64,000 nucleotides of DNA from Candidatus Woesebacteria bacterium RIFCSPHIGHO2_01_FULL_39_32 (GCA_001792345.1 MGGJ01000004.1:74090-138089), one strand, 5' to 3'. Counted from the first letter of the stretch, positions 40,725-54,245 are shown. A program made the numbers and translations. The notes: generated by a model from the letters alone, not told the origin.

Positions 40725-41696
40725 ATGATACACTACCTAACTATGAGAAAGTTATTTCCCAAACTTTTATCAATTACAATTCTCTTTATGATTGTTGTAG
40801 CAATAGGTTTTATTCCAGTAAAACCCAGGAATGAAATAAAGGAAAAGATACCTCAAGAAACGGCAAAAGAAAAGCCACTTCTAAAGGGTTTCTCTATTAC
40901 ACCGAAAAGCTTTGAAAGTAAAGATTTCTTAGATTTTTTTGAAAGAATTAGGACATCATCAAATTTAGTGTTGTGGGCGGGCGATGTTAAAGAATTGGCA
41001 AATGAAAAATCCGTCGCCAATTCTCTTGCAACAATTTCCAAAAATTACGGTTTTACTCCCGTTATTATTGTTGAATGGGTAGACAAGAAGTTAATTTTAG
41101 ATTTTGTTTCAAAAGTAAAACCTCCTTATTTAGGAATCGGAAATGAAATTAACAGAGAAAGTTCTAGCTACATTCAAAAACTAGCCAAAGACTTTAGTGA
41201 AATTTATCCTGAAATTAAAAATGCTTCTCCCGAAACAAAAGTCTTCCCTATTTTTCAACTCGAGTTGATGAAAGGTCTTCGCGGAGGTTTATTTGGGGGG
41301 ATAAATGATGAGAGTAAAAACCAATGGAAGCTTCTAGATCAATTTCCAAAGGCAGATTTGATCGCTTTTACAACATATCCCGCACTAATTTATAAGGCAC
41401 CCTCAGAAATTCCGAATGATTACTACTCGGTAATTCTGACTTATACAGAAAAACCTGTTCTATTTACCGAAGTTGGGTGGTCAAGCAAAATCGATAACCC
41501 AAGTTGGGAAACCAGCGAAAGTGAGCAGGCAGAGTTTATAAAAATTTTCGAAGAAAGGGTAAATGAACCAGAGCCGGAATTTGCAATTTGGACTTTTATG
41601 TATGATCAAAATGTCCAAAAACCATTTGACACGATGGGACTCATTAGCCGTGATGGTAAAGAAAAGGAAGGGTGGAAAGTTTGGACAGAGGAATAA
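40725..41696 (+). CDS. Secreted TIM-barrel glycoside hydrolase, clan GH-A-like
   Basis: 323 aa; N-terminal TM/signal; GIGNEINRE (acid/base NE) and LFTEVGWSS (nucleophile TE-G) spacing typical of GH5/26/113. Confidence 0.45.
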   Translation: MIHYLTMRKLFPKLLSITILFMIVVAIGFIPVKPRNEIKEKIPQETAKEKPLLKGFSITPKSFESKDFLDFFERIRTSSNLVLWAGDVKELANEKSVANSLATISKNYGFTPVIIVEWVDKKLILDFVSKVKPPYLGIGNEINRESSSYIQKLAKDFSEIYPEIKNASPETKVFPIFQLELMKGLRGGLFGGINDESKNQWKLLDQFPKADLIAFTTYPALIYKAPSEIPNDYYSVILTYTEKPVLFTEVGWSSKIDNPSWETSESEQAEFIKIFEERVNEPEPEFAIWTFMYDQNVQKPFDTMGLISRDGKEKEGWKVWTEE

Positions 41697-41711
41697 TTAA
41701 TTTAAGAACCC

Positions 41712-41728
41712 GCGGAGGAAATGGTTTC
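41712..41728 (+). repeat. Repeat A copy 1 (GCGGAGGAAATGGTTTC)
   Basis: Between convergent genes 40725..41696 and 41729..42097. Confidence 0.85.
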
Positions 41729-42097
41729 CTATTTAGAGCTTTTTATTTGACGAACTTTATCGACCAAAAGGCCCACAAAGAAAAGCAATATGAGTGTGGC
41801 TGCATAACTAATAAGTACTACCCAAAATAAATTCTTAGAATGTGTAGCCCATGAATAATAACTCTCGGGAACTATAAAACTTAGGAAATCTACTAACAGT
41901 TTCCCTGGAATAGACAGCAAAATAATAATAGCTAGAGATATTGGAGCACAGATTACAAATATTCCACCGCTGCACTCATTAAGTAGCGGAACCAACATCG
42001 TTGCAAAACCTAAAAGAATCAAAATAATATATATCACAGGTAAACGATACCTGTACTTTAGTCCAAAAAATTTCTTAAAGAATTTCTTAATCTCCAT
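41729..42097 (-). CDS. Hypothetical 4-TM membrane protein
   Basis: 122 aa hydrophobic ORF. Confidence 0.4.
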   Translation of the reverse strand: MEIKKFFKKFFGLKYRYRLPVIYIILILLGFATMLVPLLNECSGGIFVICAPISLAIIILLSIPGKLLVDFLSFIVPESYYSWATHSKNLFWVVLISYAATLILLFFVGLLVDKVRQIKSSK

Positions 42098-42153
42098 ATA
42101 TAAGTAATATTATCACCATGTCTTGTCGAAAATGAAGGAAAACCTAGAAACTG

Positions 42154-42173
42154 TGGAATAAATGGTTTCTTAA
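42154..42173 (+). repeat. Repeat A copy 2 (degenerate: TGGAATAAATGGTTTCTTAA)
   Basis: Overlaps stop codon of RelE-like gene. Confidence 0.6.
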
Positions 42174-42434
42174 TCAATATACTTCATCATGACTCCCGAT
42201 TCTGTTAAAAAGAATCCTATTTTCTTCGATTGTAAAAATAATTCTAATATCGCTTGTTATTGAAATAGACCAGTTATTTTCCCCGGACAACTTATGAAGC
42301 CGTAACGATGGGTGTTTAGGATTGGTTGATAGAAGTTCAATTTGATGTCTAAGCTTAATTTTTAATTTAGGATTATTCTTGACTATTTTCTTTAAATTCC
42401 TATCAAAAGTTCTTGAGAAATAAACTTCGTACAT
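42174..42434 (-). CDS. Type II toxin, RelE/ParE superfamily
   Basis: 86 aa; ...LHKLSGENNWSISITSDIRIIFTIEENRILFNRIGSHDEVY matches RelE/ParE C-terminal consensus. Confidence 0.7.
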   Translation of the reverse strand: MYEVYFSRTFDRNLKKIVKNNPKLKIKLRHQIELLSTNPKHPSLRLHKLSGENNWSISITSDIRIIFTIEENRILFNRIGSHDEVY

Positions 42435-42465
42435 CTACTAAAATTATATAATAAATTACTCTACC

Positions 42466-42699
42466 CTAAATTGAGTCGAAGTATTTTTTTATATCCTTTT
42501 TTGTCTTTAGTGTAATAGCTTTTCCTTCTTTTATTTCTTTCCTGGTTTCCTCTGCCCACAAATCGTATTTACTTTGAGATATAACCTTTCTCAAGGAATC
42601 ACGGACAAGGTCGCTAAAAGAAGCATAAAAGCCTCCTCTTACAAGGGTTTCAGCTTGATTTTTCAATTTTTCGGGTAAAGATACATTTATTGTAACCAT
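42466..42699 (-). CDS. Ribbon-helix-helix antitoxin, ParD/CopG-like
   Basis: MVTINVSLPEKLKNQAETLVRGGFYASFSDLVRDSLRKV matches ParD family; start set at internal Met of ORF 42466..42714; 31 bp upstream of toxin gene. Confidence 0.65.
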   Translation of the reverse strand: MVTINVSLPEKLKNQAETLVRGGFYASFSDLVRDSLRKVISQSKYDLWAEETRKEIKEGKAITLKTKKDIKKYFDSI

Positions 42700-42753
42700 A
42701 CAACAATAATACAATCTTCGTACAATAAGTCAATATATAAAATTACTTAAGTT

Positions 42754-42773
42754 GCGGAGGAAATGGGTTTCTA
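42754..42773 (+). repeat. Repeat A copy 3 (GCGGAGGAAATGGGTTTCTA)
   Basis: Overlaps stop of peptidase gene; one-base insertion. Confidence 0.8.
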
Positions 42774-43394
42774 ATTGTTGTTAAACAAACCTTCAAAATT
42801 AAAATCTACAAACTTTTTATTTCTCTCGTCATACAATTTCGTTTCATTCTCTTTAAGCTTTAAAATATTAAGTCCCTTTTGCTCTGCAAATTTTTCGACT
42901 ATTTCTATTAACTCTTCATTACAATAATTAGAGTTATTAGTGTGGACAATCACTATAGTTTCACTGTCAGGAAATATACCTTCAATAAAGTCGATGGTCT
43001 TTCTGTCGCTTGTTTCATAAAAATATGGAGCCATAAGCATTGCACCGGCACTGTCACCAAGAATAACTATATCTTTCTTAAGAACACCGAAATCAAATCT
43101 TTTCCTTTGAAGGCCATCTTTTAAAGGAATAGTATCACCGCCGCAAAGAAAAATAAGATCGTAAATTCGCCAATTAATATCTTTAGTTTTATTCCCAACA
43201 ATATCTACTGTTTCTCCAAATTGAGGAATTATATGCTTATCGTAATAATGATTAGGCTTAGCCATTGTTACAAAACAGGTCTTTTTCCCTTTGGCAATTA
43301 GTTTCTTGATCGTTTTGGAGTATTCGTAGAGATAAGATTTTTCAAAACCATTAGGTTCATTTTTATTTAGCCCACCCCGAAATATAAGTTTCAT
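42771..43394 (-). CDS. Peptidase S51-like (dipeptidase E / cyanophycinase family)
   Basis: 207 aa; IFLCGGDT...IVILGDSAGAML matches S51 nucleophile-Ser region. Confidence 0.55.
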   Translation of the reverse strand: MKLIFRGGLNKNEPNGFEKSYLYEYSKTIKKLIAKGKKTCFVTMAKPNHYYDKHIIPQFGETVDIVGNKTKDINWRIYDLIFLCGGDTIPLKDGLQRKRFDFGVLKKDIVILGDSAGAMLMAPYFYETSDRKTIDFIEGIFPDSETIVIVHTNNSNYCNEELIEIVEKFAEQKGLNILKLKENETKLYDERNKKFVDFNFEGLFNNN

Positions 43395-43432
43395 AATCGT
43401 AGTATATCAATTTGGAGAATTTTCCAGAAGCC

Positions 43433-43449
43433 GCGGAGGAGATTGTTTC
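43433..43449 (+). repeat. Repeat A copy 4 (GCGGAGGAGATTGTTTC)
   Basis: In divergent intergenic region. Confidence 0.7.
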
Positions 43450-43481
43450 GGATTATCCTTATCAAGTGTTAAAATCGAAAT

Positions 43482-43751
43482 ATGGATAAATTACATAAAC
43501 TGGAGGAAAAAATAGAGAAAATTGAATCCAGAAATAGAAAGGTCGAAAACGATAAAGCTTGGGAAACAAGTTATGCAAGAAGGTTCTTACTATTCTTTTT
43601 TACTTATGTGTCAATCGGTCTTTATCTCAATGTAATTCAAATCAAAGACCCATGGCTTAATGCAATAGTTCCATCAATAGGATTCTTCCTTTCGACTCTC
43701 ACTCTCCCCTTCTTCAAATCTACTTGGCTAAAGAAAAGAAATAAAAGATAA
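43482..43751 (+). CDS. Small 2-TM membrane protein with N-terminal coiled-coil (paralog 1)
   Basis: 89 aa; ~80% aa identity to 52260..52532. Confidence 0.5.
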   Translation: MDKLHKLEEKIEKIESRNRKVENDKAWETSYARRFLLFFFTYVSIGLYLNVIQIKDPWLNAIVPSIGFFLSTLTLPFFKSTWLKKRNKR

Positions 43752-43759
43752 CTTTGGCC

Positions 43760-43776
43760 GCGGAGGAAATGGTTTC
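43760..43776 (+). repeat. Repeat A copy 5 (GCGGAGGAAATGGTTTC)
   Basis: 9 bp after stop of paralog 1. Confidence 0.85.
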
Positions 43777-43797
43777 GGTTTCTTATATACTAAGTTA

Positions 43798-44082
43798 ATG
43801 AATAAATATTTGCGTTATTTATTTGTCCTGATATTTATTTTCTCTCTCTATCACTTTTTGAGAGATTTACTACAGACATTTAGCGTCGATAATTTCTTTA
43901 TAAACATTCTTCACAGACCCCACATCTGGTGTAGTCCGTATTGCAATTATGTAACCTATCCCCTGGACACGCTTGGAATTGTAGGCAGTTTTATCGTGTT
44001 AAGAAGAAACCGCGTGGGAATTCTGGGTGTGCTTATTTTTATATCCTTACCTCTTTGGTCGCTTGCTGTATTATTACCTTAG
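43798..44082 (+). CDS. Small 3-TM membrane protein
   Basis: 94 aa hydrophobic ORF. Confidence 0.4.
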   Translation: MNKYLRYLFVLIFIFSLYHFLRDLLQTFSVDNFFINILHRPHIWCSPYCNYVTYPLDTLGIVGSFIVLRRNRVGILGVLIFISLPLWSLAVLLP

Positions 44083-44098
44083 AAAATTTTTTTAACCA

Positions 44099-44115
44099 GC
44101 GGAGAAAATGGTTTC
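44099..44115 (+). repeat. Repeat A copy 6 (GCGGAGAAAATGGTTTC)
   Basis: 17 bp after preceding stop; followed by TATAAT 13 nt before next ATG. Confidence 0.75.
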
Positions 44116-44155
44116 TTCTTTATAATTATATTTAAAATGCTTATAATATTTGTAA

Positions 44156-44710
44156 ATGTTTCAAGAAAATTCGGCCGAACGTCGTCCTAAATTTTCCGCA
44201 TCTGTAGGTGTTATTCCTTTATATGAAAGTCCAGATGGATCAAAAGGTGTGGTTTTGGGCTTAAGAATTGAGGATGGCTTATGGACTCCTATAGCGGGCG
44301 GTCTCGAAAATCAGGAGTATGACTTGGAAGCTTTATGCAGAGAATGGCAAGAAGAAACAGGATTAAATCCAGAAGAATCTCTACAATTATTTCCCATTCC
44401 ACTTACAACAACTTCGCCGCAGCCAGGAAAAACTTCTGTCGGCATAACATATATCGGAAAATATACTGGCCCAGCGTTACCTTTAAGAGCTTGGGGCGAT
44501 GAAATAGAAGTACTTGAATCATTCGCGCCAGAAAGATTAAAAAATCTATTAGACAATCCTGAAGGCCACCTTTTTCGTCCTGACTTAAATTTAGGTAACT
44601 TAACAGCGATCCTGACTCTTTTATCACCAAATGACGGGGTGCAAACAATATTATTGAATAGAGCACGACAATCCACCCAAAGATTCATTAAAGAGGATAC
44701 ATATTTCTAA
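44156..44710 (+). CDS. NUDIX-family hydrolase (divergent)
   Basis: 184 aa; GGLENQEYDLEALCREWQEETGL Nudix-box-like. Confidence 0.55.
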   Translation: MFQENSAERRPKFSASVGVIPLYESPDGSKGVVLGLRIEDGLWTPIAGGLENQEYDLEALCREWQEETGLNPEESLQLFPIPLTTTSPQPGKTSVGITYIGKYTGPALPLRAWGDEIEVLESFAPERLKNLLDNPEGHLFRPDLNLGNLTAILTLLSPNDGVQTILLNRARQSTQRFIKEDTYF

Positions 44711-44715
44711 AAACC

Positions 44716-44732
44716 GCGAAGGAAATGGTTTC
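44716..44732 (+). repeat. Repeat A copy 7 (GCGAAGGAAATGGTTTC)
   Basis: 6 bp after NUDIX stop; followed 19 bp later by repeat B copy 1. Confidence 0.8.
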
Positions 44733-44751
44733 TTAAGATTTTTTATTCGAA

Positions 44752-44770
44752 GCTAATTTGAAGACAAATT
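44752..44770 (+). repeat. Repeat B copy 1 (GCTAATTTGAAGACAAATT)
   Basis: Just 3' of minus-strand nitrilase gene. Confidence 0.85.
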
Positions 44771-44772
44771 AT

Positions 44773-45552
44773 TTATTTTATTTCTAGTTTCTTTTTTGGC
44801 TGCCACCAGGAATCAAACTCTCGAGCCTTTGTAACCTCATCCAAATCCAACTCTTCATAAAGAATCTCTTTGTGATTAATGCTCCCTTCCTTTAAAACCC
44901 CTCTTATAGGACTTACAATCAATGACCTTCCGAAAGAGTTTGTCGCTATATTTAAATTACCCGATACTAAAATAAAAGACCTGCTCGCAAAAGCACCATA
45001 TACATATAGCGCTTTTACATACTCTTGAGTGTTCAATTCCTTCCAGCCAATCGACCATGTAGGAATACAAATAATTTCGGCGCCTTGATTGTTAAATTTC
45101 TCATATAAAAAATGTGAGAACTTGTTGAAGCCATCCTTGCAAATAAGCATCCCTAATTTTCCTATTTCTGTTTTTTCGACCTCTAAAGTATTCCCGGCAA
45201 CAACTCCAATGTTTTCTATTTCAGGTTTTGCTGGGTAAATTTTTCTGTGCGATACAACGGATTTTCCTTCAGGAGAAATAATATAGCCTTGGTTATAATA
45301 CTTGCCGTCTTTTTTAGTGTAAAAACTTGTCGCGAGAAAAACACTGTGTTTCTTTGCAACTTCTATGAGTTTCGGCAAATAATCTATTTCTTTTTCCTTC
45401 AACTCCCCAACTTCTCCGACGGCAGTTTCTGGAGCAACTATTAATTTTGCACCTGCCCACGAAGCCTGTGAAACCATTTCGTTAAGTTTCTTAAAGGAAG
45501 CACTAGATTCTTCGGGAGCGTCGTATTGTAGAACTGCAACTTTAACTTTCAT
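44773..45552 (-). CDS. Carbon-nitrogen hydrolase (nitrilase superfamily)
   Basis: 259 aa; E (APET), K (HRKIY), C (LICKDG) catalytic triad spacing. Confidence 0.8.
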   Translation of the reverse strand: MKVKVAVLQYDAPEESSASFKKLNEMVSQASWAGAKLIVAPETAVGEVGELKEKEIDYLPKLIEVAKKHSVFLATSFYTKKDGKYYNQGYIISPEGKSVVSHRKIYPAKPEIENIGVVAGNTLEVEKTEIGKLGMLICKDGFNKFSHFLYEKFNNQGAEIICIPTWSIGWKELNTQEYVKALYVYGAFASRSFILVSGNLNIATNSFGRSLIVSPIRGVLKEGSINHKEILYEELDLDEVTKAREFDSWWQPKKKLEIK

Positions 45553-45572
45553 TAACCAAATTCTACTCCGGA

Positions 45573-45591
45573 GCTAATTTGAAGACAAATT
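45573..45591 (+). repeat. Repeat B copy 2
   Basis: 20 bp upstream of nitrilase start. Confidence 0.85.
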
Positions 45592-45595
45592 TATC

Positions 45596-45904
45596 CTAAG
45601 CTGACTGAATTTCAAACTTAGTTTTTTTAGGATCGAAGGCTTTAATATTTTTCTTTACGTCCAATATTTCAATCCCTAAAATTTTACCCTTAGCATCTTC
45701 GTCCACTAAAACAGTATCCGTTACTTTTCTGGTTCGGCTATATTTTCCTTTTGCTAATTCCAAATAAACTGCGTCTTCTTTTTTATCGTATTGTATTTTC
45801 ATAATTATTTTTTCAGGATTATCAATTGTTTCTGTTACAGTCTTTTGAGAAATATTTCTCCTTTTAAGTTGCTTTATGGCATGTCCAGAAAAGTTGACGG
45901 GCAT
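45596..45904 (-). CDS. Fused DUF4258-like (short N-terminal) / DUF2283-like (C-terminal) small protein; TA-related
   Basis: 102 aa; C-terminal MKIQYDKKEDAVYLELAKG...KILGIEIL matches DUF2283; N-terminal FSGHAIKQLKRRNIS resembles DUF4258. Confidence 0.5.
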   Translation of the reverse strand: MPVNFSGHAIKQLKRRNISQKTVTETIDNPEKIIMKIQYDKKEDAVYLELAKGKYSRTRKVTDTVLVDEDAKGKILGIEILDVKKNIKAFDPKKTKFEIQSA

Positions 45905-45926
45905 AAAAACATTATAAAATAATCTC

Positions 45927-45949
45927 GGAGTTAATTTGAAAACAAACTT
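45927..45949 (+). repeat. Repeat B copy 3 (degenerate)
   Basis: GGAGTTAATTTGAAAACAAACTT, 3 mismatches. Confidence 0.6.
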
Positions 45950-45967
45950 TAAACATCGTATTTGAAA

Positions 45968-46552
45968 TTAGTAACCCCAGGCCTTCCTCTTCCCTGCTTT
46001 CATAATATTCCACGAACCATCCTGTTGGCGCATCATTACATAATAAGACGGTCTTTTAAAGCTCGAGTGTTCTTCATCACCAAGTCTAATTTCTAATAAC
46101 TTTGGTACATATGGCTCCGGAACTTTACCTAATATATCTGTTGAAATTGCTTTAACTTCCTTCGCTCTAAGAAAATCCGTGGAGATATTATAGTCAAGCT
46201 TCTCAACCACACCTTTTGAATCAAACCATAACTGTGCGCCAGTTAACTCATACTCACTTTCCCTCTCTAATAATACTGCTGCTGCCTTCGAATCGTCCAA
46301 CTCCCCCAATCCAAAGTAACCCTTTTGTTCGATTAAGACATCTGCGTGTGTTCCCTTTGGAAATAGTCCAGAAGCTACTTTATCTTTAGAAATTCGAGCA
46401 AGACAAGAAATATAACCCGGAAACTTACCAATGACAGCGCCTCGACCTTCACGAATTAATCCTTGCCACTCACCTTCAGTTAATAAACGGTTATAAAAAG
46501 GTCTGGGGGCAACATCTATTCCCGCTTGGATTTCCTCTGAATCTAAAACCAT
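45968..46552 (-). CDS. Hypothetical protein (194 aa)
   Basis: ORF only. Confidence 0.45.
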   Translation of the reverse strand: MVLDSEEIQAGIDVAPRPFYNRLLTEGEWQGLIREGRGAVIGKFPGYISCLARISKDKVASGLFPKGTHADVLIEQKGYFGLGELDDSKAAAVLLERESEYELTGAQLWFDSKGVVEKLDYNISTDFLRAKEVKAISTDILGKVPEPYVPKLLEIRLGDEEHSSFKRPSYYVMMRQQDGSWNIMKAGKRKAWGY

Positions 46553-46578
46553 TTCAACCTTATTATACCTCTCTAGAA

Positions 46579-46597
46579 GCTAATTTGAAGACAAATT
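46579..46597 (+). repeat. Repeat B copy 4
   Basis: 27 bp upstream of start of 45968..46552. Confidence 0.85.
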
Positions 46598-46675
46598 ATT
46601 TTAGTTTTGTCATAATAATACATAAGGTGTTACTTTATTTTGAGCTAAAATCCAATACCTGTGTTAAATTAACAT

Positions 46676-47287
46676 ATGTTTTTATTGAAGAAGTATTATT
46701 GGGAAGTCAAAGAAACAAAAAGTAAAGGAAGGGGTGTTTTCGCAAGGAAACCAATTTCGGCAGGCACACTTATTGGCGATTACGTTGGAAAATTGGTTCA
46801 CTTGAAAGATGTAGATTTTGATAAAGAAAAAGGAAATCTGTATCTGATGTATTACAATGACACAACAGGTATTTACCCCAGCTTAAGAAAACCGGGCATT
46901 CATCTTCTAAATCATTCGTGTTCTCCTAATTGCTGGATTTTTAAATTTAAAAGACACACTTTGGTTTTTGCATTAAAGAATATTATGAATGGAGACGAGT
47001 TGACAATTTCTTACCTCCTTCCTCCAGGTAAGCTTTGTACGAACTGCACACATAAATGCTTCTGCGAAAGCAAGGTTTGTACAAAATCGATGCATTTAAC
47101 GGAAGGTGGATATAAAAAATGGCAGGATTTTCAAGATAAAGAAGAAAGGAAAGGAAAATATAGAAAAATTATAAATGAAAACGCATTAAAACTGTTGGCA
47201 AAATATCCGAAATCTATTTCCAAAAGTTATATTGTAAAAATTAAAAATTTAGAGATTACACAAAACCTTTCCATCTCGCTAATTTGA
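46676..47287 (+). CDS. SET-domain protein (lysine methyltransferase-like)
   Basis: 203 aa; LLNHSCSPNC SET signature and post-SET Cys cluster; its TGA stop lies inside repeat B copy 5. Confidence 0.75.
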   Translation: MFLLKKYYWEVKETKSKGRGVFARKPISAGTLIGDYVGKLVHLKDVDFDKEKGNLYLMYYNDTTGIYPSLRKPGIHLLNHSCSPNCWIFKFKRHTLVFALKNIMNGDELTISYLLPPGKLCTNCTHKCFCESKVCTKSMHLTEGGYKKWQDFQDKEERKGKYRKIINENALKLLAKYPKSISKSYIVKIKNLEITQNLSISLI

Positions 47288-47296
47288 AGACAAATT
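47278..47296 (+). repeat. Repeat B copy 5
   Basis: Overlaps stop codon of SET gene. Confidence 0.85.
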
Positions 47297-47308
47297 TATT
47301 TTGTTAAA

Positions 47309-48160
47309 CTAAACAGCAAGAATCACCAGTCCCAACATTAACAAAAATATACCGATTTTCTGCTCTTTTGCTAACTTTTCCTTCAGAAAAAGTAGCGCCA
47401 AGAATATTGTCACAACAGGCGCCGCAGCAACAACTGGCGCAACGATAGATGCATAAGTACTATTTACACCCAAAGAGTAACCAAGATAACCCATACTACT
47501 TAGTATTCCCAAAAGTGCAGCTAGTTTATAAGAATAATTAGTAATAGATAAACTTTTTTCTTTATATAAAGTAAGTATAGTTAAAAACAACACACCCGAG
47601 ATGGTTGTGAGAATAATTATCTCTAACCAACCAATTTTAACGGTCATATCACCTATTAAGATAAATGACGTACCCCAAAAGAACATTGCTAACAGACCAT
47701 ATGGAACTGATCTATCAGTGATTACTAGCTTAAGATTTTTGAAATTTTTTAAATTTATTGAAACCAATATAGTCCCGACAACAACAAGTACAACAGAACC
47801 AACTTGAATTGGCAAAAGAATTTCAGAAAGAAATAATATTGAAAAAAGAATTATTATCACCGAATAAGAAGAAGCTATCGGAGACAAAACCGATAGATTA
47901 CCAACTTGCGTCCCTTTGAAAAAAGAAAGACCCCCTAAAGTAGTTATTATTCCCGCAATAAAACCTACGACAAACTCTCCGGTACTTATTTCAAAAAGGT
48001 TTGTTGTTCGACCGGAAACAAACGAAATACATAAAAGGTAGAAAAGCATGAAGATGGCATTCCACAACATTCCTTTTAAGAATCCTGCAGATTTAGAAAG
48101 AAATACTATAACATAATCGGCGACTCCAAAACCCACAAGTCCTATCAATGCATAAACCAT
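47309..48160 (-). CDS. EamA/DMT-superfamily transporter
   Basis: 283 aa, 10 TM, duplicated EamA-like halves. Confidence 0.7.
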   Translation of the reverse strand: MVYALIGLVGFGVADYVIVFLSKSAGFLKGMLWNAIFMLFYLLCISFVSGRTTNLFEISTGEFVVGFIAGIITTLGGLSFFKGTQVGNLSVLSPIASSYSVIIILFSILFLSEILLPIQVGSVVLVVVGTILVSINLKNFKNLKLVITDRSVPYGLLAMFFWGTSFILIGDMTVKIGWLEIIILTTISGVLFLTILTLYKEKSLSITNYSYKLAALLGILSSMGYLGYSLGVNSTYASIVAPVVAAAPVVTIFLALLFLKEKLAKEQKIGIFLLMLGLVILAV

Positions 48161-48179
48161 ATATTAATATTACCCCGAA

Positions 48180-48198
48180 GCTAATTTGAAGACAAATT
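48180..48198 (+). repeat. Repeat B copy 6
   Basis: 19 bp upstream of start of 47309..48160. Confidence 0.85.
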
Positions 48199-48246
48199 AT
48201 TAACAGACTGTTCTTACTAACAATTAAATATTGATATAATCAAATC

Positions 48247-49110
48247 ATGTCGGGAGTAATAGCAGCAATTTATTCCTCATTTTTTCTCGCATTATCTCAA
48301 GCTTCTTTGAAAAAAAGCTACAGGGAACTTTCTCCATCTGTTGCATTTTTCTTTGACACCCTTTTTGGTTTAGCTCTTTGGGTACCTCTAGCATTATTCT
48401 TCGGCATCAATCTGATATTCTTCAAAGAGGTCCTTTTATTTGCAGTTCTATCAGCAGTTTTATCCGAAGCATTATATTTTTATGCGCTATCTAAAGGACA
48501 GTTAAGCGTAACCACAATTCTTATTGGTAGCTACCCGATTTATACTATTTTGTTTTCTTATTTGATCAATAGAGAGATATTAACTCCGTTACAAGCATTA
48601 TTTATCGGAATAACAATCTTCGGAACACTAATTTCATACCTGCCTTCAAAATTAAACAAAGATGAATTGAAAAAAAGCGGCGTTCTGATATGGCCAATAA
48701 TAGCGGCGGTTGCAGTTGGTTTATCTGATACCTTGTCCAAGAAAATTATAAACAAAACTGAAGATTTTACGTTTCTTTTTGCACTAGCCCTAGTCCAAAT
48801 ACCGGTTTCGCTGACATACCTAAAACTTGAAAGGCAAAATATTATAAAAGAGCTAAAAGTAGTAAAAGCAAAAGCATATGATTATAAAAATGCAATAGCC
48901 GGATCACTGTTTAATATTATCGGCACTGGGCTTCTGTGGATCGCCTTTTCAAAGACTCTTGCTTCGATTGCTTCTCCGATAACTGCTACAAGCGGGGTTT
49001 TGGTAATTATAATTGCACTACTTTTTCTTGACGAGAAAATATCATTAAAACAAATAGCCGGAATATTTTTAGTCATTCTGGGTATAATTGGAATTGCGAT
49101 TCTAGTTTAA
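48247..49110 (+). CDS. EamA/DMT-superfamily transporter
   Basis: 287 aa, 10 TM. Confidence 0.7.
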   Translation: MSGVIAAIYSSFFLALSQASLKKSYRELSPSVAFFFDTLFGLALWVPLALFFGINLIFFKEVLLFAVLSAVLSEALYFYALSKGQLSVTTILIGSYPIYTILFSYLINREILTPLQALFIGITIFGTLISYLPSKLNKDELKKSGVLIWPIIAAVAVGLSDTLSKKIINKTEDFTFLFALALVQIPVSLTYLKLERQNIIKELKVVKAKAYDYKNAIAGSLFNIIGTGLLWIAFSKTLASIASPITATSGVLVIIIALLFLDEKISLKQIAGIFLVILGIIGIAILV

Positions 49111-49113
49111 AAT

Positions 49114-49584
49114 ATGCAGAAAAATCAAATTGTTTCATATTCAGGAATAGAGGGTCTACTTAAAGTAACCCAAAATTCTCTCAGCGCAGAAGGAGAGCTT
49201 CTAATTTTTGAAACTAGTTATGCATCACTAAACGACATGTTTACTAAAGATCAGGCGGAAGAAATCAGAAATGAATTTGTAAACAAGAAAATTAAAATTA
49301 GAGAGCTGACAAATCATGCTTATCACGAAACATACACTCATGTTAGGGATTTTCATGAAAAAGTAATGAATATTCGTTACATAAACCCAAACAGGCTTCA
49401 AATTAAAGTAGAAACGCTTATATATAATAATGTCGTGGCATTATACGAGCCCAAAAAAGACGGTTTCTGCCTTGAAATTTACAGCAAAGAGTTGGCCGAT
49501 CAACAAAGACAACTATTTGAATTTATTTGGAAACAAGCAGATAGACCAATAATCGGTAAGGGTGGTAGGACTTCTATTTTCTAG
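49114..49584 (+). CDS. Hypothetical protein (156 aa)
   Basis: 3 nt after transporter stop, likely co-transcribed. Confidence 0.45.
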   Translation: MQKNQIVSYSGIEGLLKVTQNSLSAEGELLIFETSYASLNDMFTKDQAEEIRNEFVNKKIKIRELTNHAYHETYTHVRDFHEKVMNIRYINPNRLQIKVETLIYNNVVALYEPKKDGFCLEIYSKELADQQRQLFEFIWKQADRPIIGKGGRTSIF

Positions 49585-49586
49585 GA

Positions 49587-49605
49587 GCTAATTTGAAGAC
49601 AAATT
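49587..49605 (+). repeat. Repeat B copy 7
   Basis: Starts 2 nt after stop of 49114..49584. Confidence 0.85.
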
Positions 49606-49610
49606 ACCGA

Positions 49611-49985
49611 TTATAGGTAGTAAGCTACCTCTATCTTTATTCTGTCAGGATCTTCGAAATATACTGCATAGTACCCCTCTTCATATTCAGGAAAGGGTTT
49701 TGGTGTGTCGTATAAAGTAGGAATTTTATTAGGTTTAAGAAATTCGTTACAGAATTTATCAACATCTTCCTTGGAGTTTACCCTGAATGCTATATGGTTT
49801 AATCCAACTCTTTTTCTGTGGAAACCTTTAATAACGTATTTTCCCTCTGCCTGATCAAACCAGATGGTCGTTCCCCCATTCATAAAGGCAAATACCTTCT
49901 TCTCATTAACAATTTCCTTATAGTCTAAAAGGGTAAGGAGTTTGTTATAGAAATTATAAGATTTGTTTAAATCTGAAACGTACAA
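49611..49985 (-). CDS. VOC-family protein (glyoxalase/bleomycin-resistance/dioxygenase fold)
   Basis: 124 aa; GLNHIAFRV and paired betaalphabetabetabeta modules; TTG start in ORF track. Confidence 0.65.
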   Translation of the reverse strand: MYVSDLNKSYNFYNKLLTLLDYKEIVNEKKVFAFMNGGTTIWFDQAEGKYVIKGFHRKRVGLNHIAFRVNSKEDVDKFCNEFLKPNKIPTLYDTPKPFPEYEEGYYAVYFEDPDRIKIEVAYYL

Positions 49986-50031
49986 GTTGATATGTCCGAC
50001 TGTAGATTTTATAAAACTATTTTATCCCAGA

Positions 50032-50050
50032 GCTAATTCGAAGACAAATT
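50032..50050 (+). repeat. Repeat B copy 8 (GCTAATTCGAAGACAAATT)
   Basis: 1 mismatch. Confidence 0.75.
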
Positions 50051-50159
50051 GTTTCAGATTTTTGACACTGGTTAATTTTATCTATTCTCCTCAACCCCTA
50101 CCAGTCTTGGTTTCTTCACTTTCTCGTTTGAAATCTTATTGATGTCTCTGACATTTAGA

Positions 50160-50813
50160 CTACCTAGAAAGTCTTTCTAATAAACCATATTCAACATACC
50201 AAGGAAAAACTCCATCCTCAGGATAAATAAATTCGTGAGGACCAATCTCCATGGAAGGTTTTTTAAAAGAACGTACGCCTCGCGGCTCTCTTAATTGGTA
50301 CCCTGTTAATTGCCGTACGACTTCTATTTCTTCATCGGATAACCCAAGTGTTATGGTTTGCCTATCAAACTCTCTTGAAGAGTGTCTAATTGTGAGAGGA
50401 CTTCCGCGCAAATTAATAACTGTGCGTTTGTCATTTACTGTAATTCTATAACAATATTCAAGCACTGCCCTGAGCCGCGATTGCATAGGCTGAGCGTATT
50501 CTTCGGCTTTAACAATATCTTCAGTATTCACCACATGTACGCCATCGATGTCGCTTCCATTATTTGCTTCACCGTGCGCTATTGAACCATACACAAACAT
50601 GCCTCTATATTCCGGATTTATAGACATTTCTTCTAATACTAAACTTCCTAAGATACTTCTGACCGAATGTTGATCTTGCAAATCAAGAGCATCTGGGAGT
50701 TCTACATGAGTTAAAAATGATACATCAGGAATACGTATTTTATCCGGATATACAAAAAGTGGTTTTTCTGGAAGTATTCGTTTTTCTTGTCCTGATTCTT
50801 CGTCACCAACCAT
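50160..50813 (-). CDS. Nucleotidyltransferase-fold protein (minimal NTase, ANT/Lnu-like)
   Basis: 217 aa; YGSIAHGEANNGSDIDGVHVV fits hG[GS]x9-13DhD NTase motif. Confidence 0.5.
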   Translation of the reverse strand: MVGDEESGQEKRILPEKPLFVYPDKIRIPDVSFLTHVELPDALDLQDQHSVRSILGSLVLEEMSINPEYRGMFVYGSIAHGEANNGSDIDGVHVVNTEDIVKAEEYAQPMQSRLRAVLEYCYRITVNDKRTVINLRGSPLTIRHSSREFDRQTITLGLSDEEIEVVRQLTGYQLREPRGVRSFKKPSMEIGPHEFIYPEDGVFPWYVEYGLLERLSR

Positions 50814-50877
50814 ATTAATAAATCCAAAAGTAAAGATACATTAACGGAATTATACCAGCTTAGAATACTTAGAGAAA

Positions 50878-51363
50878 TTACCTTAGGGGAATTGAGAACC
50901 AGCGGGGAACTTTTTTCATATAGCCTGAATATTCTTTACCAAACTTCTTTTTTAGTTCGGGCTCTTCTTTGTAAATGATAACCAATTGAAAGAGGACAAC
51001 TGCAGCAAGAACATAAAAGAGAAGTAGTATGTGACCGAAAATCATAAAAACTCCTAAAAATGCCAGCAAGACGGCGGCGTACATGGGATTGCGACTATAT
51101 CCATAAAAGCCTTTGGAAATAAGTTTTTTTGGCGATTCGATAATAACTGGTGTGACTCTACCTGTTAATAAATGCTGGTGCATCGTATATAAAGTTGCCG
51201 AAAAACCAAAAAGAAAGAAAATAAATCCTAGGGTTCTTAGCAGACTGTTATCAAAAACTGGTAAATTGTAAATGACGTTGAGCCGAATTAAATATACAGG
51301 AACAACAAACCAAGCAAAGACCAAAATAAAAAGTCCGAGAAGTAATGTCAACGCACTTTTCAT
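50878..51363 (-). CDS. Isoprenylcysteine carboxyl methyltransferase (ICMT)/phospholipid methyltransferase family membrane protein
   Basis: 161 aa; GFYGYSRNPMYAAVLL motif, 4 TM. Confidence 0.7.
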   Translation of the reverse strand: MKSALTLLLGLFILVFAWFVVPVYLIRLNVIYNLPVFDNSLLRTLGFIFFLFGFSATLYTMHQHLLTGRVTPVIIESPKKLISKGFYGYSRNPMYAAVLLAFLGVFMIFGHILLLFYVLAAVVLFQLVIIYKEEPELKKKFGKEYSGYMKKVPRWFSIPLR

Positions 51364-51381
51364 TATAGTTATTATATCAAT

Positions 51382-52155
51382 TTAATTCCGCCTTTTGTGG
51401 AAGGATTTCTGATGTGCAAGGAACTTTTGAGCTTCAACCGATACTCTTTTCTTCTCCCTGTAATTAGATTTTTCAACAAAACGGTTAAATAATTTAAGTA
51501 CTTTTTCAAATCTCAGCTCTGCAATTTTAAGTCTTGAGAAATTATAGACAATGTAATCTCTGTACATATTTTTATCGGCCAAATTTATAAGTGGATGTTT
51601 TCTTCTTACTATCCTTATCATCGCGACCTCAACGTGTGGGTTTGGAATAAAGTCGTGTCGTCGAAAATTCCAAAAAATATCAATTTCAAACCATGGTTTT
51701 AATAATACCGATACCATTGAGTTCTTGTTGTCAAAAGGCATTCCAATAAATCTTCTTGCCGCTTCTTTTTGGATCACTATATAAGCTTCTAAAAAATTAT
51801 CATCGTCGGTTAATTTTCTTAAAACGCCGGAGGTTATATTGAAAGGAATGTTTGAAAAAACTTTGTAGGAGTAAGGCGGCATCCTGAAATTTAGAAAATC
51901 ACCTCGAATTAGTTCTAAGTTCTTTGCATTTTTATATTTTTCTTTTAGGTGAAAGTAAAGTTTTCTATCAAGTTCAATCGCGGTAACTCTTCCGGCAACT
52001 TTCAACAATTCTTGGGTAATAATTCCTCTACCGGGACCGATTTCGATAACTTTGTCATTTTTACCAAGAGAAGATTTCCGAATTAATTTAGCGATAAGCT
52101 TCGGATTGACAAGATTGTTCTGTGAGTAGAGCCTCCGCCTTTGTTTGTACAACAT
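51382..52155 (-). CDS. rRNA adenine N6-dimethyltransferase family (Erm/KsgA)
   Basis: 257 aa; YSQN..., VIEIGPGRG SAM motif, NIPFNITS motif IV; size and N-terminus more Erm-like than KsgA-like. Confidence 0.75.
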   Translation of the reverse strand: MLYKQRRRLYSQNNLVNPKLIAKLIRKSSLGKNDKVIEIGPGRGIITQELLKVAGRVTAIELDRKLYFHLKEKYKNAKNLELIRGDFLNFRMPPYSYKVFSNIPFNITSGVLRKLTDDDNFLEAYIVIQKEAARRFIGMPFDNKNSMVSVLLKPWFEIDIFWNFRRHDFIPNPHVEVAMIRIVRRKHPLINLADKNMYRDYIVYNFSRLKIAELRFEKVLKLFNRFVEKSNYREKKRVSVEAQKFLAHQKSFHKRRN

Positions 52156-52259
52156 AGCGGAGTCTCCTTATAATTATGGTTACCATATATTTTTCCTTCT
52201 AAAGCTAATCAGCTTTGTGTGTATTTTATCTCAAAGCCTTCTTGAAGTAAAATATAAAC

Positions 52260-52532
52260 ATGGATAAACTTCAAAAACTGGAGGAAAAAATTAGTAAAAT
52301 TGAAGCTAGGAACAGAAAAGTTGAAGCAGATAAATCTTGGGAGACGAGCTACACAAGAAGAGTTCTGCTTTTTGTTTTTACGTACATCTCAATTGGGCTT
52401 TATCTAAATGTGATTCAGGTTGAAAACCCTTGGCTTAATGCAATTGTTCCCTCAATCGGATTTTTGCTTTCAACTCTTACTCTTCCCTTCTTCAAAAACC
52501 TCTGGATGAAAAAACGAAACGGAAAAATTTAG
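52260..52532 (+). CDS. Small 2-TM membrane protein (paralog 2 of 43482..43751)
   Basis: 90 aa, ~80% identical to paralog 1. Confidence 0.5.
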   Translation: MDKLQKLEEKISKIEARNRKVEADKSWETSYTRRVLLFVFTYISIGLYLNVIQVENPWLNAIVPSIGFLLSTLTLPFFKNLWMKKRNGKI

Positions 52533-52537
52533 AGGCA

Positions 52538-52554
52538 GTAGAGGAAATGGTTTC
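52538..52554 (+). repeat. Repeat A copy 8 (GTAGAGGAAATGGTTTC)
   Basis: 6 bp after stop of paralog 2. Confidence 0.75.
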
Positions 52555-52635
52555 TTAATCCCCGTCTTAATTAATCTTGACAAACTTGTTAATAACATCT
52601 ACTGTTTTAATAGAACACTCATTTATTTCAAAAAT

Positions 52636-53526
52636 ATGGCCAAAAAGGCTAAGTCTGCAAACTTCTTTAACAAAATAATTGTTCTGGCATTGGCAGTAAT
52701 ATCCTTAGCTTTGATAACCGTTGCGACAACACAAAAACAAACCAATTACGACATAAGAACAGGGGCTACTTACAATCCAAAAATTGACCCCGATGATTTT
52801 ACTACAAACATAACAAATAAATACTTTACGCTTCCTGTCGGGAAAAAAATGGTTTATGAGGGCGATACCGAGGAGGGACGCGAAAGAATAGAAATAACAA
52901 TTCCAGGCGATAAGAAGAAAATTATGGGAGTTGAGACCCTTTTGTATCGCGACAAGGCCTGGCTCGACTCAAACGGAGACGGGAAATGGAGTAAGAAGGA
53001 GATGATTGAGGACACGCGAGATTATCTAGCCCAAAACAAGAAAACGGGTGATGTTTGGTATTTCGGCGAGGAAGTAAATAACTATGAGGATGGAGAACTT
53101 ATTGACCACGACGGTTCCTGGCTGGCGGGAGATGATAGATACCCAGGCGCATTACCTGGCATTTGGGTTAAGCAAAATCCAAAAGTAGGAGAGGTATACT
53201 TGCAGGAATTTTATAAGGGAAAAGCGGAAGATACGGTCAAAGTTTTATCAACGCATGCAACAGTAAAAACCTCGCTTGGCAAATTTAAAGACTGTTTGAG
53301 AACAAAGGACTTCACTCCGTTAGAACCCGATGCTCTGGAAAACAAATACTACTGTCCCAACGCAGTGATTAAAAATATCGGCTCAACTGTACTTATAAAA
53401 GATTTAGCAAATGATGAACAGCTGGAACTTTCTAAATTAACTGTTGGAAAAACTGACGATGACAAAGATGATGAAGACGATGACAAAGATAATGACCGTG
53501 ATGGCGATGAGGAAGAAGATGATTAG
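52636..53526 (+). CDS. Secreted protein with poly-acidic (D/E-rich) C-terminal tail
   Basis: 296 aa; N-terminal signal anchor; C-terminus DDDKDDEDDDKDNDRDGDEEEDD. Confidence 0.5.
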   Translation: MAKKAKSANFFNKIIVLALAVISLALITVATTQKQTNYDIRTGATYNPKIDPDDFTTNITNKYFTLPVGKKMVYEGDTEEGRERIEITIPGDKKKIMGVETLLYRDKAWLDSNGDGKWSKKEMIEDTRDYLAQNKKTGDVWYFGEEVNNYEDGELIDHDGSWLAGDDRYPGALPGIWVKQNPKVGEVYLQEFYKGKAEDTVKVLSTHATVKTSLGKFKDCLRTKDFTPLEPDALENKYYCPNAVIKNIGSTVLIKDLANDEQLELSKLTVGKTDDDKDDEDDDKDNDRDGDEEEDD

Positions 53527-53528
53527 GA

Positions 53529-53547
53529 GCTAATTTGAAGACAAATT
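53529..53547 (+). repeat. Repeat B copy 9
   Basis: Begins 3 nt after stop of 52636..53526. Confidence 0.85.
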
Positions 53548-53551
53548 ATTT

Positions 53552-53860
53552 TTAAATAAGCTTACTACGATGGGTTAGAATATTTCCCCATGTCATCATT
53601 TTTTCAGCCCAATCAATGGAATCTTTCGGTCCCTCTAGTCCTTCGCTTTCAAGTTGTTTATAGTGTCTGAGAAAATCTTTCAAAGTATCTTTAAAGGGAG
53701 TTCTAAATGAACTTGAATCAAGAGTTTCAATGTAATTACTCGTATTCGAAATAAAAGTTTGTATCCTTTTTCTCTTACCTAAGTAATCATCGGCTGCCCA
53801 ATTACCAATCCTGTTTAAATTCATCGCAATATCTAAAATTTTTTGTTTATTACCTGTCAT
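53552..53860 (-). CDS. Hypothetical small protein (102 aa), downstream member of overlapping gene pair
   Basis: 4-nt overlap with upstream gene. Confidence 0.4.
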   Translation of the reverse strand: MTGNKQKILDIAMNLNRIGNWAADDYLGKRKRIQTFISNTSNYIETLDSSSFRTPFKDTLKDFLRHYKQLESEGLEGPKDSIDWAEKMMTWGNILTHRSKLI

Positions 53861-54180
53861 AAAAGTAAGCTTCTGACAATCTTATCAAACCTTTTTCTAA
53901 TTTGTTTTGACATTATATCGCGGCTTGGATTATCTTGATTGGGACGCAAATTAATCATGGAGTTGTAATCAATTTCTTTCGTTTCCAAGTCCAATCCTCC
54001 ACCCCATAGATTAATTTTGTGTGAACCATCGTCCAGAAGTTCTTTTTCTTCATCAACGTGTCTATCTTCTCCCGCAGATATCATTTCGCGCTCAATGTCA
54101 ACGACAATCTTAATATATCCTTTAAAGTGTTCCGCAATTTTATTCAACTCGGACCCATTGGCCTTTCTTCTAATAATCAT
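53857..54180 (-). CDS. Hypothetical small protein (107 aa), upstream member of overlapping pair (possible TA module)
   Basis: ORF, overlap architecture. Confidence 0.4.
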   Translation of the reverse strand: MIIRRKANGSELNKIAEHFKGYIKIVVDIEREMISAGEDRHVDEEKELLDDGSHKINLWGGGLDLETKEIDYNSMINLRPNQDNPSRDIMSKQIRKRFDKIVRSLLL

Positions 54181-54212
54181 ACCTGGCTCATTTTACCACG
54201 ATTTTAAGCAAA

Positions 54213-54231
54213 GCTAATTTGAAGACAAATT
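54213..54231 (+). repeat. Repeat B copy 10
   Basis: 33 bp upstream of start of 53857..54180. Confidence 0.85.
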
Positions 54232-54245
54232 ATTTTCCCAGGTCT

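Follow-up and report, generated by a model that had tools for sequence, protein, structure and literature searches.

A short repeat at the junctions of a Woesebacteria cassette array may carry a promoter for leaderless mRNAs

Introduction

Does a short repeat that separates the genes of a shuffled array also bring them their promoters? The question is raised by a 64,000-nt stretch of Candidatus Woesebacteria bacterium RIFCSPHIGHO2_01_FULL_39_32 (GCA_001792345.1, MGGJ01000004.1:74090-138089), which we call the window and number from its first letter, and in particular by two short-repeat families, repeat A and repeat B, that lie between the genes of the following feature:

41693..54235, minus strand: cassette array of 12.5 kb, with repeat A and repeat B copies, all co-oriented, between cassettes of one to five genes

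An earlier note on the region 45552-48198, which lies inside this array, had proposed that repeat B, read on the minus strand, supplies a -35-like hexamer (TTGTCT) to near-leaderless transcripts of at least two units. Here we follow repeat B through the window and through related loci. The reading that we favor, with a probability of about 0.65, is that repeat B is the junction of a hypervariable Woesebacteria cassette array and carries a sigma-70-type promoter predicted to give leaderless mRNAs.

Results

Repeat B in the window

The repeat B core, GCTAATTTGAAGACAAAT, occurs ten times in the window, against 0.16 copies expected by chance. All ten are on the plus strand and confined to 44.7-54.2 kb (44752-54230), with starts at 44752, 45573, 45930 (degenerate), 46579, 47278, 48180, 49587, 50032, 53529 and 54213. 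Both minus-strand arrangements on which the earlier note had built its case are present in the sequence: TTGTCT-N17-TAGAAT-N7-ATG at the nitrilase gene and TTGTCT-N17-TAATAT-N6-ATG at an EamA gene, where N17 stands for 17 intervening nucleotides. It was also right about the gene at 45968..46552, whose TATAAT lies 9 nt before the ATG and N21 from TTGTCT, and it had missed the units at the copies 50032 (glyoxalase) and 54213 (DUF5674). The copies with their surroundings are as follows.

45553..45595, minus strand: nitrilase promoter-like unit, core 45573-45590; TTGTCT 45588..45583, N17, TAGAAT 45565..45560, 7 nt, ATG 45552
48161..48202, minus strand: promoter-like unit of EamA (47309..48160), core 48180-48197; TTGTCT 48195..48190, N17, TAATAT 48172..48167, 6 nt, ATG 48160
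50010..50054, minus strand: unit upstream of glyoxalase, core 50032-50049 with one mismatch; TTGTCT 50047..50042, N17, TAAAAT 50024..50019, 6 nt, ATA 50012..50010
46553..46601, minus strand: unit upstream of 45968..46552, core 46579-46596; TTGTCT-N21-TATAAT (46567..46562), N9, ATG 46552
45905..45950, minus strand: unit upstream of DUF2283, degenerate core 45930-45947 with three mismatches (TTGTTT); TATAAT 45916..45911 at N23, 6 nt, ATG 45904
54181..54235, minus strand: unit upstream of DUF5674, core 54213-54230; TTGTCT-N16-TAAAAT (54206..54201), also TGn-extended TAAAAT 54195..54190 at N27, 9 nt, ATG 54180
47278..47295, minus strand: convergent-junction copy whose core contains the TGA stop (47285-47287) of the SET gene; no -10 at N16-18
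49587..49604, minus strand: copy at a convergent junction, adjoining the stop of 49114..49584; no -10 at N16-18
53529..53546, minus strand: copy at a convergent junction, adjoining the stop of 52636..53526; no -10 at N16-18
44752..44769, minus strand: copy behind the plus-strand NUDIX gene, 16 nt from the repeat A copy 44697-44735; no -10 at N16-18; nitrilase stop 3 nt past the core

A TANNNT hexamer stands at exactly N17 from TTGTCT in three of the six gene-facing copies (45573, 48180 and 50032; p = 5e-4 at a background of 0.03 per offset), which makes nitrilase, EamA 47309..48160 and glyoxalase the three candidate N17 units of the window. The other three gene-facing copies (45930, 46579 and 54213) retain the core and have their own -10 at a non-canonical distance from TTGTCT; their genes probably rely on that -10, which is mostly TGn-extended. 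A second -35-like hexamer within the repeat, TTCAAA, sits N16 from the TATAAT of 45968..46552 (at 46589..46584) and N18 from the TATAAT of the DUF2283 unit, and the DUF5674 unit falls in an N27/28 class with the sequence cGTGGTAAAAT (31/203 copies of the repeat family described below).

The glyoxalase unit ends on ATA, where the homologs in the related loci L050, L070 and L105 have ATG in the sequence ...GAGTAAAATTGTGTTATG. The same ATA at 50010-50012 is found in all four other same-strain assemblies that cover the site, and the start listed for the ORF (open reading frame) is a TTG 27 nt downstream of it. The ATA could be the mark of a decaying cassette or a non-canonical leaderless start.

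Separately, the sequence at 52202-52219, upstream of the cassette at 52260, reads AAGCTAATCAGCTTTGTG: its first letters, AGCTAAT, resemble those of repeat B, after which it diverges and forms a small palindrome. A B junction may have decayed here, between 51382..52155 and 52260..52532.

Promoter-like spacing across the repeat family

An exact 18-mer scan with one genome per species returned multi-copy, co-oriented clusters from at least eight Candidatus Woesebacteria assemblies and from a few bins labelled 'uncultured Gammaproteobacteria', a label that is probably wrong. A 20-mer scan of metagenomes added 81 further loci, mainly from groundwater and aquifer samples. Single 18-mer matches (Bacteroidales, Planctomycetaceae, Dysgonomonas and others) were set aside as chance, about 17 being expected in 596 Gb by our own calculation from the collection size, and a phage or plasmid origin was rejected on a single, chance-level match of the 17-mer in 2.9 million viral contigs. 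Removal of redundancy left 225 copies; the N17 statistics use 203 non-redundant copies from about 100 Woesebacteria-type loci, with the first ATG of each ORF taken as the gene start without a gene caller.

In this set, 64 of 203 copies (31.5%) have TANNNT at exactly N17 from TTGTCT, compared with about 3% at other offsets (binomial p about 1e-46); the hexamers are TAAAAT (40), TAGAAT (12), TAATAT (3), TACAAT (3) and a few others. Hexamers peak a second time at N28 (31 copies), there within the extended -10 cGTGGTAAAAT. Core and ATG are most often 19 nt apart, a sharp mode (16/109) that corresponds to N17, the hexamer and 6 nt; their minimum distance is about 15-19 nt, and in the EamA copy it is 19. 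Among gene-facing copies with an N17 hexamer, the ATG lies 4-9 nt past the hexamer in 30 of 55 and exactly 6 nt past it in 16, and 13 of the remaining 25, in which the distance is longer, have a second -10 beside the ATG. Repeat B precedes genes of 78 protein families, and the N17 hexamer is found in 31 of them.

The hexamer also depends on what follows. It is present in 55 of 131 gene-facing copies, as opposed to 5 of 44 (11%) that face the 3' end of a gene on the opposite strand (p = 1.8e-4). The earlier note had expected copies at the ends of plus-strand genes to fire antisense into those genes; because such copies lack a -10, with no TANNNT at N16-18 in four of four window copies and the 5/44 just given family-wide, that expectation is unsupported. 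Nor is the repeat a bidirectional -35 donor, a possibility that we rejected since TTGAAG, on the opposite strand, shows no TANNNT enrichment at N16-18.

Extended -10 promoters, in which a TGn motif precedes the hexamer, can do without a -35 element. At repeat B, TGn accompanies the ATG-proximal -10 in 3 of 30 cases when that -10 lies 16-18 nt from TTGTCT, versus 43 of 70 at other spacings (p = 1.9e-6); collapsed to protein families, the trade-off is 1/15 versus 24/42 (p = 7e-4). Most gene-facing copies with an ATG-proximal -10 that is not at N17 likewise have a TGn-extended one. A single gene illustrates the exchange: nitrilase genes with repeat B (window, L071, L008 and L053) have a plain TAGAAT at N17, whereas in L046 the ortholog lacks an upstream repeat, and cGTGATAAAAT stands there instead, 6 nt before the ATG.

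Could AT-rich intergenic DNA simply produce such arrangements by chance? That idea draws some comfort from a generic sigma-70 consensus scan of 41-56 kb, which listed the nitrilase arrangement and found no excess of promoter-like sites in real over shuffled sequence (57 vs 48 +/- 7.5), although such a scan cannot discriminate in this AT-rich DNA. For that reason significance rests on the position-specific test across the repeat family and not on single-site matching, and there the enrichment at N17 in the family and in the window's gene-facing copies, together with its dependence on context and strand, makes chance a practically negligible explanation.

Leaderless gene starts in the lineage

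The window's genes in general have TANNNT 5-9 nt before the ATG (38/70, mode 6), and this -10 often carries TGn; a Shine-Dalgarno (SD)-like motif is found in only 8 of 70. In 219 such promoters without repeat B, TTG stands at exactly N17 in 11.4% versus about 2%, and TGn is present in 39%. Between -10 and start lie 7 nt at nitrilase and 6 nt at both EamA and glyoxalase (in the latter to ATA), and the mode in the repeat family is 6. The near-leaderless arrangement described in the earlier note thus stands in its geometry and falls as a peculiarity of these units, as leaderless-type starts appear to prevail genome-wide. One clear SD-led exception is the RrnaAD gene at 51382..52155, with AAGGAG 8 nt before its ATG.

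Orientation and anatomy of repeat B

Repeat B has one orientation within each locus, apart from one opposite-strand match each in L056, L088 and L105. Relative to the strand that reads GCTAATTTG..., the neighboring genes are mostly opposite: among the 225 copies there are 57 minus/minus junctions and 4 plus/plus, so that the array reads by default along the minus strand of the window. Cassettes on this strand had been called inverted in the earlier note; they are the majority, and the minority-orientation genes of the window are those on the plus strand (SET, 48247-49584 and 52260-53526). The gene that precedes a copy on the default strand usually has its stop codon overlapping or abutting the repeat; in 31 of 128 cases this stop is the TAA of TAATTTG.

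The default-strand consensus of aligned copies is AAATAATTTGTCTTCAAATTAGCTTCGGAGTAAAAT, and the full unit, about 41 bp, reads (A)TAATTTGTCTTCAAATTAGC-TYCGGAG-TAAAAT. Conservation peaks in a 17-nt core, TTTGTCTTCAAATTAGC, at 89-99% per position (95-99% within TTGTCT). The TYCGGAG-TAAAAT that follows is the majority sequence, yet far less conserved than the core. The claim that repeat B donates a -35 is accordingly borne out by the ten-fold N17 enrichment and at the same time too narrow, since the consensus includes spacer and -10, and about a third of copies hold the whole promoter-like sequence. A -35 of TTGTCT, a 17-bp spacer and a -10 of TAAAAT would make up a sigma-70-type promoter, to which both hexamers appear to conform.

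The core is laid out as a 7-4-7 inverted repeat with an asymmetric center, TAATTTG-TCTT-CAAATTA, and this invites two further explanations. One is that repeat B works as an RNA or DNA hairpin, for instance a terminator or a stem-loop that stabilizes the 3' end of the preceding gene's transcript. Either strand can fold into a 7-bp stem with a 4-nt loop, and the upstream stop codon falls in or against the palindrome's left arm, as described above. The predicted fold is weak, however (RNA -3.0 to -3.5 kcal/mol, z = -1.3 to -1.6; DNA -3.9 to -4.1 kcal/mol), with one G-C pair. No U-tract follows it on the gene-majority strand, a terminator scan picked up no copy, and Rfam at the gathering threshold has no match anywhere in the window. 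Variants break pairs one-sidedly with essentially no compensation, and conservation is as high in the loop as in the stem. We therefore rejected a terminator or structured RNA as the identity of the repeat, and a hairpin role of any kind seems very improbable.

The other explanation is that the palindromic core is the operator of a dimeric regulator of the cassette genes, with TTGTCT conserved as part of that operator. In its favor, the inverted repeat is very highly conserved, including its center and 10 nt of the would-be spacer; the core overlaps the -35 and spacer of the N17 promoters; and the second class, at N28, places the core 11 bp (one helical turn) further upstream. But the left arm is much less conserved (T at position 1 in 123 of 227 copies) than the right (A at position 18 in 218 of 227), about 20% of copies lie at convergent junctions with nothing to regulate, and a uniform orientation independent of gene direction would not be expected of an operator. 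The arrays have no candidate regulator linked to them, and an operator alone would not account for the TGn trade-off. We regard this as improbable, though less so than the hairpin.

Cassette shuffling between loci

Compared with other loci, the window's array is homologous in single-cassette blocks of 66-85% nucleotide identity whose edges lie at or near the repeats, for example nitrilase 44741-45588, EamA 47278-48168, 48235-49606 and glyoxalase 49586-50055. Cassette order and neighbors vary by locus: nitrilase stands beside SET in L046 and two cassettes apart from it in the window. Successive B copies are mostly 0.33-3.5 kb apart. Between species the array keeps its chromosomal position in part, sharing flanking families 29 and 10 with L002. 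Five assemblies of the same strain have unchanged gene order, so no gain or loss of cassettes is seen at strain level. The core is far better conserved than the cassettes it flanks, which points to strong selection or homogenization.

Several observations concern the cargo that moves. The most frequent joins genes of families 0 and 2 (each about 110-120 aa) in a pair that is probably toxin-antitoxin-like; this pair occurs between A repeats as [A] 0< 2< [A] in three loci (L046, L026 and L024) and between B repeats as [B] 2> 0> [B] in three others (L065, L002 and L021). At L044:93-200 and L096:2608-2744 (default-strand coordinates), 107-136 nt between two B copies contain no ORF and a conserved palindrome, TATGATATATCATA; these units may be non-coding cassettes or remnants.

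The core of repeat A is CCGCGGAGGAAATGGTTTC. The window contains 8-9 copies of this repeat, at 41693-44735 and 52519 and all on the plus strand, and in related loci repeat A is nearly always co-oriented with B.

41693-41731, 42139-42175, 42735-42773, 43414-43452, 43741-43779, 44080-44118, 44697-44735 and 52519-52557: repeat A copies, co-oriented with B

Its default (minus) strand consensus is TAAGAACCCATTTCCTCC-GCGGCTTCTG, and some loci have a GC-rich palindromic insert of 20-30 nt (for example CCACCAGAGGCGGGCAAGCGCGGCTTCTG) between the two halves. At type A junctions, a -35-like TTG stands at N17 in 1 of 42 following genes, and 26 of 42 have a TGn-extended -10. The default-strand ends of the two repeats are alike, ...TTAGCTTCGGAG in B and ...GCGGCTTCTG in A (for example at 45566-45574 and 43414-43425 of the window), and an exact GCTTC lies within 50 nt after repeat A in 18 of 90 copies, versus a 5% background. 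In L088 (3585-3610) and L103 (1066-1090; default-strand coordinates), the only informative near-identical locus pair that we found, the same SET cassette and an identical repeat run to ...AGCTTC and are then followed by different cassettes. The shared edge motif may be the exchange point.

A 272-nt cassette (ORF of 89-90 aa, no Pfam match) occurs twice in the window at 76% identity, at 43470-43741 in the A block and at 52248-52519, embedded in the B block, with a repeat A copy after each; it has homologs in L032, L051, L073 and L013.

These data bear most directly on the explanation that repeat B is only an attC- or dif-like recombination site, its promoter resemblance a by-product of AT-richness and its genes served by their own promoters or by read-through. 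The copies share one orientation within a locus, with each other and with repeat A, whatever the direction of the genes; their core is equally conserved at gene-facing copies and at convergent junctions where no gene follows; homology blocks start or end at or near them, and cassette order differs between relatives; L088 and L103 are identical as far as AGCTTC and diverge after it; and a 7-4-7 inverted repeat with an asymmetric center resembles the core sites of recombinases. What recombination alone leaves unexplained is the ten-fold enrichment of TANNNT at N17, the ATG mode 6 nt further on, the disappearance of the -10 from copies that no gene follows, the trade-off with TGn and the exchange seen in the nitrilase ortholog.

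Pfam also identified no recombinase among 57 window ORFs (all 37 called at 38.9-63.4 kb and 20 upstream of those), and none is among the 25 families listed from 122 flanking ORF clusters (>=200 aa) of related arrays, a list that holds every family matched by at least two clusters and that a single occurrence or a distant gene could escape, the loci being short. A role as junction is compatible with a role as promoter, and it is the 'promoter-like by accident' part that is disfavored; taken whole, the recombination-only explanation is unlikely, though it is the strongest of the alternatives.

Cargo and surroundings of the array

The genes of the array are short and lie in both orientations. By Pfam, they encode ParE/RHH toxin-antitoxin, S51 peptidase, NUDIX, nitrilase, DUF4258/DUF2283 and SET proteins, three EamA transporters, glyoxalase, nucleotidyltransferase, PEMT, RrnaAD and DUF5674. 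Outside the array, the window is ordinary chromosome (MurJ, HrcA, UvrD, AddA-like, FemAB, LytR, MetRS, RmuC and alpha-2-macroglobulin), and a search for tRNA and tmRNA found none in the window. In other loci the flanks are housekeeping by Pfam or inspection, with H+-pyrophosphatase, pilin-like and response-regulator-like proteins.

Of the ORFs that flank the array, 40725-41696 (323 aa) has a membrane anchor and no Pfam, NCBIfam or PDB match, and judged by eye it reads like a glycoside hydrolase (GIGNEIN motif). The other, 56043-56756 (237 aa), has no detectable homologs and no match in the same three databases. We considered both as hidden recombinases and set the idea aside, Pfam, NCBIfam and PDB giving it no support.

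Matches to the window, with identical gene order, are contig MGFL01000020 of GCA_001791885.1 and several groundwater assemblies. In the former (L111, a GenBank assembly of the same strain), the 194-aa cassette gene at 45968-46552 is uncalled, and coordinates past it, on the higher window side, are offset by 146 nt relative to other assemblies; the gene tables, from which alone this was read, suggest a 146-nt indel or an assembly difference in or beside that cassette. The protein of 296 aa at 52636..53526 ends in three tandem 21-nt units (53455-53523), giving an Asp/Glu-rich C-terminus that runs directly up to a repeat B copy. Outside the array, a histidine-phosphatase gene at 32480-33097 has no repeat near it, and its family (protein family 4) forms B- or A-flanked cassettes in L053, L059, L076 and L022; this family may exist as a fixed gene and as a cassette alike.

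Discussion

Our reading of repeat B as a junction that carries a promoter draws on sequence anatomy, positional enrichments, the trade-off between TTGTCT and TGn, and the shuffling of cassettes between loci, all of which are observed. Several points weigh against it. TTGTCT agrees with TTGACA at only four of six positions, some 58% of gene-facing copies lack a -10 at N17, and the generic promoter scan found no excess. The copies are kin by descent, so that the N17 signal is partly inherited and the counts are not fully independent, a problem that collapsing to protein families lessens and does not remove. Gene starts were set by the first ATG and not by a gene caller. The highest conservation lies in the 17-nt core, which includes 10 nt of the 'spacer' and is not accounted for by sigma-70 recognition. 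Finally, the case for a promoter consists of sequence statistics throughout.

If the reading is right, RNA polymerase holoenzyme would use TTGTCT together with the hexamer at N17, and transcription would begin at or beside the A of the ATG, since the ATG lies mostly 6-7 nt past the -10; the product would be a leaderless mRNA. A genome that translates mainly leaderless messages would need a start site at the ATG of each gene, and a cassette platform in such a genome would have to supply a promoter at every junction, unlike the single Pc promoter of integrons. Because the core is kept where no gene follows, promoter function alone is insufficient to explain its conservation. The 17-nt core probably has a second role, most likely in recombination or protein binding, with service as a substrate for homologous exchange also a candidate.

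More tentatively, and at less than even odds, both repeats may serve as recombination junctions in a cassette system of the Candidate Phyla Radiation (CPR) that is, so far as we found, undescribed: integron-like in function, with sequence-conserved sites of 17-41 bp, no linked integrase and a junction that doubles as a promoter. Recombination would be carried out by a host or trans-encoded recombinase or by homologous exchange between junctions, and a promoter that starts at the cassette's ATG would solve the expression of mobile genes in an organism whose translation relies mostly on leaderless mRNAs, where an integron-style Pc with SD-led cassettes is unusable.

The closest known systems are integron arrays, such as sedentary chromosomal integrons and CALINs, which are clusters of attC sites lacking an integrase. 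The attC sites are imperfect palindromes of 55-140 bp, conserved in structure, with R'', L'', L' and R' boxes and the form R''(RYYYAAC)...R'(GTTRRRY). Like these arrays, ours has co-oriented short repeats bounding mobile, mostly single-gene cassettes (0.33-3.5 kb). Its cargo recalls that of chromosomal integrons, with many toxin-antitoxin pairs, NUDIX, glyoxalase, small transporters and methyltransferases, and as in integrons the same cassettes recur reordered with other neighbors in related genomes, ORF ends overlap the repeat and related species retain the chromosomal site in part. Unlike attC, repeat B is a unit of 17-41 bp conserved in sequence, without compensatory pairing. Membership of the attC/integron class was rejected, as no IntI or other recombinase was found nearby, several junction spaces (21, 25, 26 and 43 nt) are too short, and GTTRRRY/RYYYAAC and R/L boxes are absent. 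As a rule, integron cassettes lack promoters and depend on Pc for their expression, promoters within cassettes being exceptional (review PMC8876359), whereas the repeat B junction carries a promoter-like unit and nearly every gene has its own -10 beside the ATG.

IS1, IS2, IS257/IS26 and ISAba1 are insertion sequences (ISs) with hybrid promoters. Such promoters are created by outward-facing -35 hexamers at IS ends (reviewed in PMC9330008). In the same way, and as the earlier note had proposed, repeat B offers a repeated segment with a -35 about 17 bp from a -10 beside the gene, which fits EamA (TAATAT) and nitrilase (TAGAAT). It differs in being no end of a transposase element, in often holding the -10 and spacer within the repeat, in standing at every cassette boundary in one orientation, and in the predicted leaderless transcripts.

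In the dif modules of Acinetobacter plasmids, pdif (XerC/XerD) sites of about 28 bp flank small modules, toxin-antitoxin modules included (PMC6449649). These sites also have short inverted arms around a short asymmetric center, and their modules are likewise shuffled, in the pdif case between replicons. They have no dedicated adjacent recombinase because host Xer proteins are thought to act on them. However, pdif sites alternate in orientation and are built as 11-6-11, whereas repeat B copies are all direct and 7-4-7; promoter function is described for none of the pdif sites, and recognition of repeat B by Xer proteins is without evidence.

The Correia elements of Neisseria are 100-150 bp long, have terminal inverted repeats and TA target duplications, and are spread genome-wide in both orientations. 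Like repeat B, they and other miniature inverted-repeat transposable elements (MITEs) are dispersed intergenic repeats that can bring a -35 or -10 to neighboring genes. Repeat B differs as a single block of 17-41 bp that is confined to arrays and, rare exceptions aside, keeps one orientation; it lacks terminal repeats and, in aligned copies, flanking target-site duplications.

Among open-access papers and preprints we found none in which cassette arrays of this sort, or leaderless promoters, are linked to Woesebacteria or Patescibacteria, and no description of an integron-like gene-shuffling region of this kind, for which the present array is a candidate. If repeat B is an active promoter, a standard 41-bp plug would tie each swappable gene to transcription and, via the leaderless start, to translation, a compact answer to the problem of expressing horizontally acquired genes in streamlined genomes that barely use Shine-Dalgarno sequences. 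The consensus is a candidate portable promoter for future genetics of these organisms, and the 17-nt core, the N17 class and the N28 class offer handles for finding the recombination machinery and for reading the flow of accessory genes in groundwater metagenomes. If the wider proposal is also true, it would extend integron-like cassette platforms to the CPR, with quite different junction sites.

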